A stretch of DNA of 5,822 bases from a virus (Duplodnaviria > Heunggongvirae > Uroviricota > Caudoviricetes), in the IMG/VR virus record IMGVR_UViG_2541047425_000019; one strand, given 5' to 3'. This document shows, piece after piece, positions 515 through 5,380 of the stretch. The notes under the pieces were generated by a model. It was given only the letters and a program-made list of their open reading frames with translations. It did not search any database and was not told the DNA's origin. The position numbers and the translations under genes are program-made. The stretch's first letter is position 1. Each line of letters opens with the position of its first letter.

Positions 515-700
515 ATGCCAAACAAACCATGCCCTGCCTGTAACGCTCTTTCTGGCTTTTTAGAGAAGGGCGGTTATTACATTTTTAACTGTCCAGAACA
601 TGTTGAATTTCATATATCAAAACTTGACAGTATCATTACAAAGCCAAATCAGTATCAGTCTGATTTACTGAATAAAGAGTTAAACGCCGCCCGAGATTAA
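515..700 (+). CDS. Small hypothetical protein (61 aa) with Cys/His motifs (CPAC ... CPEH), possible zinc-ribbon-like protein
   Basis: ATG at 515 is preceded by GGAGG (505-509) with a 5-nt spacer; it is the in-frame internal start of track ORF 443..700. The upstream part of that ORF lacks an RBS. Product MPNKPCPACNALSGFLEKGGYYIFNCPEHVEF...; stop TAA at 698-700. Confidence 0.45.
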   Translation: MPNKPCPACNALSGFLEKGGYYIFNCPEHVEFHISKLDSIITKPNQYQSDLLNKELNAARD

Positions 701-737: not shown

Positions 738-1037
738 CTATTGTTGAACTGGATTAAACCAGTAATTCTCTATTGCTCTTATTGTTACCATCGGATGATT
801 GCCGGGGGTTATTTTAAGTTCGGGAGGAAAAGGCTCTCCATCAGCAGCCATCATTGAGTATGTGAAATCCGCCGACGCAGTCCCTTTCATGATAATTCCG
901 AATTTTTCAAGTAATGAGAGCAGTTCCGGTAATCCTGTGTCATCTGAATAACTTTCCTCATAGAAAGAAGCGATTGCCGCAGGAGATGACAGTTCTCGCT
1001 CTGCAATTTTTTTGTAGTTTTCCAGAATTCTTTTTTT
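738..1037 (-). other. -1-frame C-terminal extension of the 887..1276 gene (about 97 codons, no start codon of its own); fusion product about 179 aa
   Basis: Hand translation of the minus strand in the -1 frame from the A7 run (complement of plus T7 at 1031-1037) gives RILENYKKIAERELSSPAAIASFYEESYSDDTGLPELLSLLEKFGIIMKGTASADFTYSMMAADGEPFPPELKITPGNHPMVTIRAIENYWFNPVQQ, stop at 738-740. There is no ATG/GTG/TTG in this frame between the upstream in-frame stop (about 1086) and the internal Met, so it cannot be an independent gene of this length. Confidence 0.45.
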
Positions 1038-1276
1038 GAATACTTTTCCTCGACATGAAAACCCATCACCGAGGCAATCCGCTTTGCAGTTTCTTCAGTA
1101 TTCTGGTTGTTTGTTACCGAAACAGAGTACAATCCGGTAAACGCATCGCGCACATTACGAGCCATATTATCAATGTATTTCTTCGTTGCAGATTCTAATT
1201 CAACTTCGTTCAGACGTTGGTGAAGTGCATGTGCTGCAATTTCCTGGATTTCTTTTAGTAAATCTTTAAATTCCAT
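887..1276 (-). CDS. Hypothetical protein, zero-frame product (129 aa) of an AT-rich gene interrupted by a frameshift
   Basis: Track ORF 887..1276. ATG (complement of 1274-1276) is preceded by GGAG with a 6-nt spacer, placed directly after the stop of the upstream small ORF. The N-terminal 82 aa look like real protein; the zero-frame tail after the A7 runs looks low-quality. The region looks AT-richer than its flanks. Confidence 0.55.
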   Translation of the reverse strand: MEFKDLLKEIQEIAAHALHQRLNEVELESATKKYIDNMARNVRDAFTGLYSVSVTNNQNTEETAKRIASVMGFHVEEKYSKKEFWKTTKKLQSENCHLLRQSLLSMRKVIQMTQDYRNCSHYLKNSELS

Positions 1277-1287
1277 CTTTAACTCCG

Positions 1288-1809: not shown

Positions 1810-1832
1810 AAAAAAATCCCTCGAAAGAGGGA
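1810..1832 (-). terminator. Rho-independent terminator of the repressor/TA operon (t_imm-like)
   Basis: Minus-strand transcript reads TCCCTC-tttc-GAGGGA followed by TTTTTTT, 19 nt after the parE stop: a 6-bp GC-rich stem, 4-nt loop and U7 tract. Confidence 0.5.
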
Positions 1833-1850: not shown

Positions 1851-2138
1851 TCAGATAGAGAAGGGAAATTGTCGCCGAGAATGTGTCACGCTTACAATCT
1901 CAATGCTTGAAGCAGCTACTCTGTACAGGATTATGTAGTTAGGGTGGGTCACGATCTCTCTCAATCCAGAAACCCGTTCGCTTGGTGGATATAAGTACGG
2001 ATGCTCAGATAGAGGTAATACCGATGTTTCAATGCGTATTTTTAGTCTACGTGCTGCCGGTGGGTTCTCCTTGGCGATGTAAGTTATGATCTGGCGCAAA
2101 TCATCGCGAGCAGACGGTAGCCATAAAATGGGTAACAT
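1851..2138 (-). CDS. parE: ParE/RelE-family type II toxin (95 aa)
   Basis: Track ORF; the sequence (…ARDDLRQIITYIAKENPPAARRLKIRIETSVLPLSEHPYLYPPSERVSGLREIVTHPNYIILYRVAASSIEIVSVTHSRRQF…) has the characteristic ParE pattern. Its start overlaps the antitoxin stop as TAATG (2136-2140), a classic translational coupling. Confidence 0.85.
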   Translation of the reverse strand: MLPILWLPSARDDLRQIITYIAKENPPAARRLKIRIETSVLPLSEHPYLYPPSERVSGLREIVTHPNYIILYRVAASSIEIVSVTHSRRQFPFSI

Positions 2139-2329
2139 TACTCGCTCTTGTTAGTTACAGCAATTTGAGCAATAAGATTTTCCATTTCAGCCATTACCTC
2201 GTCATGTGGAATTGCGGGGCGAGTGTCTGCAAGGCTTGACGTTACTTTAGTGCGCAACCATTCGTTGTAACTGTTTTCTTGTTCGGTAGTTTCGAATTCT
2301 GAAACTATCGGAGAAAGGGCTGTACCCAT
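2138..2329 (-). CDS. paaA: PaaA-like antitoxin (63 aa) partnered with ParE
   Basis: Track ORF; ATG (complement of 2327-2329) preceded by GGAG with a 7-nt spacer. The product (…SPIVSEFETTEQENSYNEWLRTKV…RPAIPHDEV…) resembles, from memory, the PaaA2 antitoxin of the E. coli O157 paaR2-paaA2-parE2 module. Small, acidic, immediately upstream of and coupled to parE. Confidence 0.75.
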   Translation of the reverse strand: MGTALSPIVSEFETTEQENSYNEWLRTKVTSSLADTRPAIPHDEVMAEMENLIAQIAVTNKSE

Positions 2330-3139: not shown

Positions 3140-3548
3140 ACACATCCGCATGGCGATGAATGCCTGGGCGCATCCGGACGGCGAAAAAGTACCGGCTGCG
3201 AAAATTACCAAAGCGTATTTCGAGCTGGGAATGACGTTCCCGGAACTGTATGACGACAGCCATCCGGAAGCCATGGCTCGCAATACTCAGAAAATTTTCC
3301 GCTGGGTGGAGAAAGACACTCCTGATGCGGTTAAAAAAATTCAGGCGTTGTTACCAGCGATCGAAAAAGCGATGCCGCCTCCGCTGGTGGCCCGAATGCG
3401 CAGCCACAGTTCCGCTTATTTTCGGGAGTTGGTAGAGACGAAGGAACGGCTGGTGAAAGATATTGATGATTTCGTTGCATCAGCGATCGTTCTGTTCGAT
3501 CAGATGAATCGTGGTGGCCCGGCAGGAAACACTCTGGCTGTGCATTAA
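3123..3548 (+). CDS. ydaT: YdaT-like protein (141 aa), proposed functional analogue of CII in Rac/CP-933P-type prophages
   Basis: Track ORF; N-terminus MKIKHEHI… matches my recollection of YdaT proteins. It overlaps the end of the cro-like gene by 17 nt in another frame, typical of a coupled operon; GGAG lies 7 nt upstream. Confidence 0.75.
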   Translation: MKIKHEHIRMAMNAWAHPDGEKVPAAKITKAYFELGMTFPELYDDSHPEAMARNTQKIFRWVEKDTPDAVKKIQALLPAIEKAMPPPLVARMRSHSSAYFRELVETKERLVKDIDDFVASAIVLFDQMNRGGPAGNTLAVH

Positions 3549-4288: not shown

Positions 4289-5380
4289 ATGCGTGATTAC
4301 GCAAAAGTTTCTCCGCGATTCTGGCTGGGAGAAACGGGGAGAGAACTTAGAAAGGCGGGTGCAGAAGCGCAAGTTGTTGCTTTTTACCTGATGACATCCC
4401 CTCACGCAAATATGCTGGGTTTGTATTACCTGCCAGTTTTATACCTTGCTCATGAAACCGGGCTTGGTCTGGAAGGGGCTTCAAAGGGGCTTAAAAGGGC
4501 TGTTGAAGCTGGTTTTTGTAGCTATGACCATGATGCAGAGATGGTCTGGGTCCATGAAATGGCAGCCTGGCAGGTTGGGGAAACGTTGAAGCCTGGCGAT
4601 AACCGTTGTGCAGGTGTCAGGAATGAGTATGCATCATTACCTGAAAACGCTTTTCTGTCAGTGTTTTACGACAGATATAAAACGGATTTCCATCTGGATG
4701 TGAGGCGGAATAATAGCCGAAATTCGGTAAGGGGCTTCGAAGGGGCTTTTAAGGGGCTTCGAAGCCAAGAACAGGAACAGGAGCAGGAGAAAGAACAGGA
4801 ACAGGACAAAAACACTATGGTTCATGGCAAAAAAAACACCACGAACCAGGCAGGGGATGTTCAGACCGTCAATCCTGGTCAGCCAGCAGGCACGACACCG
4901 GAAGCCGATTCGGGCGCTGTGCAGCAGGTGATGACCGCAGGGTCGGAGCAATCACACCAACTGCAGCAGCCTGAAGCCGATTCCGCCATTCAGCGGGAAG
5001 CCGATCGGGTAGTCCCGGAAAGCACCGGGCAGTCTGTGGGACGAGTGGATTATCCGGATGTGTTCGAACAGGTCTGGCGGGAATACCCGTTGCGTGCTGG
5101 GGCAAACCCGAAGAAATCCGCTTTCAGTGCCTGGAAGGCCAGATTGCGCGAGGGGGTGCCACCAGAGACCATGCTGGATGGTGTGAGGCGTTACGCGAGA
5201 TACCTGGCGGCGACCGGGAAAGCGGGAACGGAATTTGTTCAGCGAGCGACGACGTTTTTTGGGCCGGACCGGAATTTTGAAAACCCCTGGTTGCTCCCGG
5301 TAAGCGGCACGAACAACCAGCGTTGTGTGAATCATATTTCTGAACCGGATACCGAAATTCCGCCGGGATTCAGGGGGTGA
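4289..5380 (+). CDS. Phage replication initiation protein (O-like; N-terminal DNA-binding region, low-complexity EQ-repeat linker, C-terminal domain of the conserved phage type) (363 aa)
   Basis: Track ORF 4178..5380 trimmed to ATG 4289, which has GAGG 5 nt upstream. Sits directly upstream of the DnaC-like gene with a 6-nt gap. The C-terminal region (…YPDVFEQVWREYPLRAGANPKKSAFSAWKARLREG…) recalls the conserved C-terminus of phage replication proteins; the family assignment is from memory. Confidence 0.7.
   Translation: MRDYAKVSPRFWLGETGRELRKAGAEAQVVAFYLMTSPHANMLGLYYLPVLYLAHETGLGLEGASKGLKRAVEAGFCSYDHDAEMVWVHEMAAWQVGETLKPGDNRCAGVRNEYASLPENAFLSVFYDRYKTDFHLDVRRNNSRNSVRGFEGAFKGLRSQEQEQEQEKEQEQDKNTMVHGKKNTTNQAGDVQTVNPGQPAGTTPEADSGAVQQVMTAGSEQSHQLQQPEADSAIQREADRVVPESTGQSVGRVDYPDVFEQVWREYPLRAGANPKKSAFSAWKARLREGVPPETMLDGVRRYARYLAATGKAGTEFVQRATTFFGPDRNFENPWLLPVSGTNNQRCVNHISEPDTEIPPGFRG
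4726..4812. repeat. Iteron-like direct repeats and hexanucleotide repeat inside the O-like gene (candidate origin)
   Basis: AAGGGGCTT-type 9-mers repeated three times at 4728-4760, including palindromic GGCTTCGAAGCC (4755-4766), then (GAACAG)-like repeats at 4767-4806 and an A-rich tract. A related cluster AAGGGGCTTCAAAGGGGCTTAAAAGGGCT lies at 4473-4501. Confidence 0.4.

Follow-up and report, generated by a model that had tools for sequence, protein, structure and literature searches.

Programmed −1 ribosomal frameshifting in Escherichia coli is known from the dnaX cassette, in which an A_AAA_AAG heptamer is accompanied by an SD-like element 10 nt upstream and a stem-loop, and the shift shortens the product. 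In the orfA–orfB genes of the IS3 family (IS911, IS3, IS600 and others), a −1 shift at A_AAA_AAG or A_AAA_AAA yields a longer fusion protein; the overlap is conserved between diverged members of these elements, as is a stem-loop or pseudoknot that stimulates the shift. In E. coli reporters, −1 frameshifting at A_AAA_AAA amounts to 0.405% without a stimulator, 0.82% with IS911-type stimulators and 24.8% with the IS3 pseudoknot; with the moderate IS911 stimulators, A_AAA_AAG gives 4.26%, as against the 0.82% of A_AAA_AAA (PMC4066793 Table S3). Values of 25–60% have been reported for a C_AAA_AAA site under T7 overexpression (PMC1851650). Another described class comprises authentic-frameshift genes with homopolymer indels, in which a one-base lesion in an A run is followed by an intact downstream frame and intact orthologues exist. 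Restoration of such genes by −1 slippage or by transcriptional insertion of an A is formally possible (PMC1088944; PMC5009743, 'savior' indels).

We analysed a 5,822-nt stretch of viral DNA (IMG/VR record IMGVR_UViG_2541047425_000019; hereafter referred to as the window), in which the initial annotation had described an AT-rich gene split by a dnaX-like −1 frameshift. The comparisons reported here argue for a simpler event. We consider it highly likely that this accessory gene of a lambda-like prophage of the Sakai Sp4 type has suffered an ordinary one-base frameshift truncation, from A8 to A7, and that no programming is involved. The split gene resembles dnaX in the lysine-codon phase of its heptamers and in a GAGG placed 10 nt upstream, whereas its heptamer ends in A rather than G, it lacks a significant hairpin, its shift would lengthen rather than shorten the product, and its arrangement is not conserved among homologues. 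It shares with the IS3-family genes the heptamer and a −1 shift towards a longer fusion, but its overlap is allele-specific and no stimulator was detected. Intact orthologues, a one-base A-run lesion and an intact downstream frame are what it has in common with the authentic-frameshift genes; it differs from them in being a non-essential prophage accessory gene, and nothing indicates that restoration matters.

The window corresponds to a lambda-like prophage of enterohaemorrhagic E. coli: 601 nt of it occur at 100% identity in many O157:H7 chromosomes, and the Sakai record names the site "prophage Sp4, lambda-like phage". Its minus strand encodes a helix-turn-helix (HTH) repressor (2357–2758), RelB (2138–2329), a RelE/ParE toxin (1851–2138), a DUF1391/YdfA protein (1418–1573), YdfB (1288–1416, stop codon 1288–1290), the split gene and the DicF small RNA (127–178), the last being a full-length match to Rfam RF00039 (76.9 bits; gathering score 48); dicB lies just beyond the window edge, after DicF. 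DicF and the flanking ydfA and ydfB homologues identify the region as the dicB operon, in which the split gene occupies the ydfC slot, with ydfA and ydfB on one side and DicF and dicB on the other. Its earlier assignment to a leftward early operon was therefore right in the sense that it is a member of the dicB operon. The gene is also AT-richer than its surroundings, as had been noted (40.3% G+C against 47.7% for the window), but the description of it as moron-like is not supported: it starts 11 nt past the ydfB stop codon, and the upstream sequence has no conspicuous promoter-like site.

In the dicB operon of the K-12 Qin prophage (dicA, ydfA, ydfB, ydfC, dicF, dicB), the gene order and the slot are the same, and the flanking ydfA (DUF1391), ydfB and DicF are recognisably conserved. 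By contrast, K-12 YdfC has no sequence resemblance to the split-gene protein, and the slot is mosaic. We rejected K-12 YdfC (b1573, 72 aa) as a homologue, since by inspection, without a pairwise alignment, the two proteins are unrelated and have only the operon position in common; RefSeq labels the window-type gene 'hypothetical protein' only, not YdfC. The RelB and RelE/ParE pair (1851–2329, minus strand) has the prophage repressor on one side and the ydfA homologue on the other. This pair is carried by the Sp4-type module, whereas K-12 and the other examined loci do not have it; neither K-12 Qin nor loci L002, L003, L007 and L009 have it at the matching position, and it thus looks like a prophage-type-specific insertion. 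Further plus-strand homopolymers occur in the window at 1810–1816 (A7), 3333–3339 (A7) and 4829–4836 (A8), the first of which adjoins a terminator-like hairpin (1817–1832, minus strand) that closely follows the RelE/ParE gene.

The zero-frame ORF of the split gene (887–1276, minus strand) is preceded by a GGAG ribosome-binding site (1283–1286, minus strand) 6 nt before the ATG and encodes 129 aa, identical to RefSeq WP_000394511.1 and Sakai ECs_1063; a literature search for ECs1063, WP_000394511 and ybl81 returned nothing. The −1 frame is open from the 5′ side of both A7 runs to the TAG at 738–740, and a −1 shift at either run leads to a 179-aa product. All coordinates of this layout were re-read and agree with the initial annotation. 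Residues 1–90 of the zero-frame ORF are ancestral and residues 91–129 form an out-of-frame tail of 39 residues, whereas the ancestral C-terminal segment (738–1006, minus strand; 89 codons plus TAG) now lies in the −1 frame, where its own first start codon is the ATG at 888–890. The earlier description of this segment as open and protein-like is accurate: such a frame goes far beyond chance, simply because it is the ancestral one, and 87 of its 89 residues are the same as in the intact protein P0001. It is protein-like because it was coding until recently and is under purifying selection in intact relatives. We did not accept the 50-aa ORF at 738–890 as an independent gene: no convincing ribosome-binding site precedes it, and it simply represents the end of the ancestral frame. 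Peptides expected from the two frames are IAERELSSPAAIASFYEESYSDDTGLPELLSLLEK and GTASADFTYSMMAADGEPFPPELK for the −1 frame and LQSENCHLLR for the zero-frame tail.

We searched for homologues with the 179-aa fusion as the protein query, and then fetched the DNA of the homologues and aligned it at the site. Intact, single-frame relatives are readily found. P0001 (179 aa) is 94% identical to the fusion, P0002 84% and P0003 (180 aa) 80%, these three being 179–180 aa long, and P0004–P0009 (177–186 aa) are 63–70% identical. RefSeq likewise annotates this slot with unbroken ORFs in strains TUM9812 and ETEC4068, where they encode 177 and 186 aa. At the DNA level, loci L004–L009 are single ORFs of 179–180 aa in which the second run is A8, the three closest intact alleles reading ACA/GCA AAA AAA ATT GCA there; L002 and L003 read AAACGCATC at this site, and more distant alleles read GCC AAA CGC ATC GCA. 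The window and the Sakai, O103 and O121 loci have A7 there (1007–1013, minus strand; ACA AAA AAA TTG). Adding one A to the window restores the junction EFWKTTKKIAERE, an exact match to P0001. The first run (1031–1037, minus strand), by contrast, is A7 in all loci but L009, and intact genes read through it in frame as ...EEKYSKKEFWK.... As the intact single ORFs carry A8 at the second run, the split is an A8-to-A7 contraction at 1007–1013, which is the lesion site. The recent pseudogene that the initial annotation had listed among its options is borne out by this loss relative to intact relatives of 179–180 aa. GTDB species representatives, scanned for the pattern, and a phage collection, searched by megablast, gave no match; at the protein level the phage collection contains distant relatives only, in Stx-converting phages (31% identity over 127 aa).

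The A7 state is genuine DNA sequence rather than an assembly artefact. A 200-nt segment was altered to A8 and to A6, and each version was used to query 5,426 complete E. coli genomes; both queries found the same 386 genomes, with a best identity of 99.5% each time, and none of these 386 carriers has an exact A8 or A6 version. Roughly 330–350 of them, as estimated from an evenly spaced listing, share a 601-nt stretch with the window at 100% identity. Carriers include Sakai, EDL933, and O103:H2 and O121 strains, and in the three annotated loci that were examined, from O157:H7, O103:H2 and O121, both the protein accession and the neighbourhood are the same; nine IMG/VR contigs also carry the identical A7 allele. 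The mutation predates the spread of the prophage module among O157:H7, O103:H2, O121 and related strains.

The lesion falls in a protein of two parts. Against PHROGs, the N-terminal part matches phrog_1363 (E = 2.4e-37, residues 1–92), phrog_2151 (3.8e-29, residues 1–83) and phrog_9419, all families of uncharacterised phage proteins; Pfam, NCBIfam and PADLOC returned sub-threshold noise only for the protein, and no family in any of these four libraries corresponds to the C-terminal domain. In a whole-library profile search, nearly all of the 83 representative matches are confined to the N-terminal ~55 residues. P0136 is the only protein related over the whole C-terminal domain; the other C-terminal matches are P0122, which is the window's own 50-aa downstream ORF, and short pieces, near the E-value cutoff, of two very long multi-stretch proteins. 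The N-terminal part recurs alone and fused to unrelated C-terminal parts, for example in a 212-aa 'Ybl81' type. Its first ~55 residues (MEFKDLP..IQEIAA..L...NVRDAFTGLY; window positions 1100–1276) are common to proteins with at least five unrelated C-terminal parts, among them P0019, P0051, P0053, P0087 and P0113, and also occur as stand-alone proteins of 50–100 aa. This distribution suggests a recombination boundary within the gene or a modular adaptor domain. AlphaFold2 models of the intact P0001, computed from 9- and 31-sequence alignments, have a mean pLDDT of 50–51, with two helices (residues 8–24 and 32–55) at about 75–83 and the C-terminal domain below 50. As the truncated product keeps an N-terminal module that is found alone elsewhere, it may retain the activity of that module.

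The C-terminal frame encodes a real domain, on which purifying selection acts in the intact relatives (dN/dS 0.17–0.21 at a dS of about 1.3). In 270 nt of this downstream segment, the window differs from all of L004, L007 and L009 at one position only, which creates an ATG codon (789–791, minus strand) and replaces an arginine present in all nine intact homologues (GNHP-R-V) by methionine (R163M). A single window-specific substitution of this kind suggests, but does not demonstrate, relaxed constraint on the downstream part. The neighbouring convergent gene (515–700, plus strand, stop codon 698–700; WP_001133046.1) encodes a 61-aa protein whose CPAC...CPEH motif is zinc-ribbon-like. A nonsense change from TCA to TAA at 698–700 shortens it relative to the 80-aa version in loci with an intact A8 gene, where the longer version overlaps the 3′ end of that A8 gene by 20 nt. 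This change points the same way as R163M and likewise suggests relaxed constraint. In the Sp4-type module, two adjacent accessory genes are both shortened.

These observations are consistent with a simple course of events. One A has been lost from the A8 tract in this lineage, most likely by replication slippage. The tract corresponds to codons 88–91, about ten residues inside the C-terminal domain. With this A lost, standard decoding yields a 129-aa protein, in which the conserved N-terminal helical module is most likely followed by the initial residues of the C-terminal one and then by the 39-residue out-of-frame tail, and the 89-codon C-terminal domain would now go untranslated. The recency of the deletion, with its one differing position in 270 nt, accounts for a C-terminal frame that is still protein-like. 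A minor full-length fraction could arise without any programming, by −1 ribosomal slippage at either heptamer, the first run being possibly a secondary slippage site, or by the addition of an extra A during transcription. The run length of A7 is below the threshold of about 9 A/T for transcriptional-slippage sites (mxiE, Thermus dnaX and the 9A/9T IS genes). Given this threshold and the published reporter values, full-length protein is expected at well under a few percent; extrapolating from those values, the share from unprogrammed slippage may perhaps be 0.4–1%. The 25–60% reported at C_AAA_AAA indicates that context can raise this figure considerably, so that rescue could be higher than assumed here.

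Among the alternatives, the one that fares best holds that the A7/A8 tract is a contingency locus, heritably turned on and off by replication slippage, or a transcriptional-slippage site, and that full-length protein is present in a meaningful subpopulation or fraction. A7 and A8 both occur among closely related alleles, a widely shared N-terminal module meets a rare C-terminal one at this tract, and disrupted ORFs that can be restored by slippage at A/T runs are documented (PMC1088944). However, the allele itself gives no sign of switching, A8 being seen only on differently diverged alleles and in none of the carrier genomes; selection against transcriptional slippage becomes evident in many bacteria at about 9 A/T (PMC1088944), which suggests that A7 would be a rather weak site. 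We regard this explanation as quite unlikely. An A6 variant, P0011, was considered as evidence for phase variation and rejected, because it comes from an indel-laden assembly and A6 is found in no complete genome.

We consider it very unlikely that the junction tract is a used recoding or contingency site, at which a minority of full-length protein would be made by −1 slippage beside an abundant form with the N-terminal module only, giving two functional isoforms from the Sp4-type allele. A counter-point to the truncation reading is that the allele is widespread, at 386 of 5,426 genomes, and that no revertant was observed, which fits a neutral or mildly advantageous truncation and, equally, a tolerated two-product arrangement.

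Programmed −1 frameshifting in the manner of dnaX or IS3, with A7 selected to supply 129-aa and 179-aa isoforms at a set ratio, was the explanation placed foremost in the initial annotation. Both A7 runs, at 1031–1037 and 1007–1013, are indeed in the zero-frame phase A_AAA_AAA, a slippery heptamer of the type X_XXY_YYZ, and the −1 frame is open; moreover, A_AAA_AAA is used at proven IS3-family frameshift sites (PMC4066793). The ORF is lysine-rich, however, and holds ten AAA codons, and when its codons are shuffled the probability of at least one A7 run is 0.35 and that of at least two is 0.05, so two such runs in an AAA-preferring ORF are only mildly unusual. The SD-like GAGG (1048–1051, minus strand) does lie exactly 10 nt upstream of the first heptamer, a dnaX-like distance. 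The first heptamer and GAGG are not at the lesion, however, and no SD-like element precedes the second heptamer, which is. They are ordinary codons of the intact genes: GAGG falls within the Glu-Glu codons GAG GAA and is present in the intact L002–L008, and the first run (TCA AAA AAA) encodes Ser-Lys-Lys. Both are lost in L009, which has no GAGG and reads TCG AAA AAA at the first run. The first heptamer, which had originally been given weight, is read in frame by every intact homologue.

The proposed downstream element is weaker than first described. The imperfect stem-loop (GCAGA...UCUGC-like; 978–1005, minus strand) is the minimum-energy fold of the 32-nt fragment that contains it (−7.5 kcal/mol), but it is weak and does not stand apart from shuffled sequence (z = −0.15; 84 of 200 shuffles equalled or exceeded it), and longer fragments around it gave z = −0.39 and, for a 64-nt fragment, z = −1.04. 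The stem begins 2 nt after the second heptamer, closer than the 5–9 nt expected of a stimulatory structure, and no structure better than shuffles was found. The two-frame layout, whose conservation the initial annotation had proposed to check by alignment, is confined to a single cluster of alleles of at least 99% identity, and among the homologues of less than 99% identity whose site was compared, none has two frames; all are single ORFs, with A8 or no run. Uninterrupted homologues with A8 are the outcome that had been named beforehand as counting against programming. Furthermore, an otherwise invariant arginine has been replaced in the part of the protein that a programmed shift would express. 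We therefore hold programming to be extremely doubtful. Overall, the interpretation in the initial annotation is partly supported, and its dnaX-like headline is unsupported.

That the true DNA has A8 and an intact gene, the split being a homopolymer sequencing or assembly error as had also been suggested, has a virtually nil probability: although homopolymer miscalls are known in this gene, as in the L014 assembly that encodes the A6 variant (six indels relative to the window in 2.8 kb, including four in homopolymers) and in L022 and L023, contigs of one draft genome that disagree in run lengths, error is excluded by 386 concordant complete genomes of several serotypes, Sakai and EDL933 included, and further differences set the A8 alleles apart from the window, so that they are distinct alleles, not corrected reads of the window allele. 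In L022 and L023 (IMG genome 648276671) and in P0016, P0017 and P0018, the frame changes at one or other of the two A runs, in some cases leaving the frame and returning to it. Both runs are indel hot spots in assemblies, and sequencing errors are probably among the changes.

WP_000394511.1 (ECs_1063) is annotated in RefSeq, across hundreds of EHEC genomes, as an ordinary 129-aa hypothetical protein. Our analysis indicates that it is really the frameshift-truncated form of a 179-aa protein, and that its last 39 residues are out of frame. If the two-isoform reading were true, the gene would be an example of recoding in a prophage, within the dicB operon of EHEC; nothing that we found points there. 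For an accessory gene of a prophage, such an event is ordinary. The split gene illustrates that a recent homopolymer deletion can yield an in-phase A_AAA_AAA, an SD-like tetramer and an open −1 frame, so that a comparison with homologues should precede claims of recoding.
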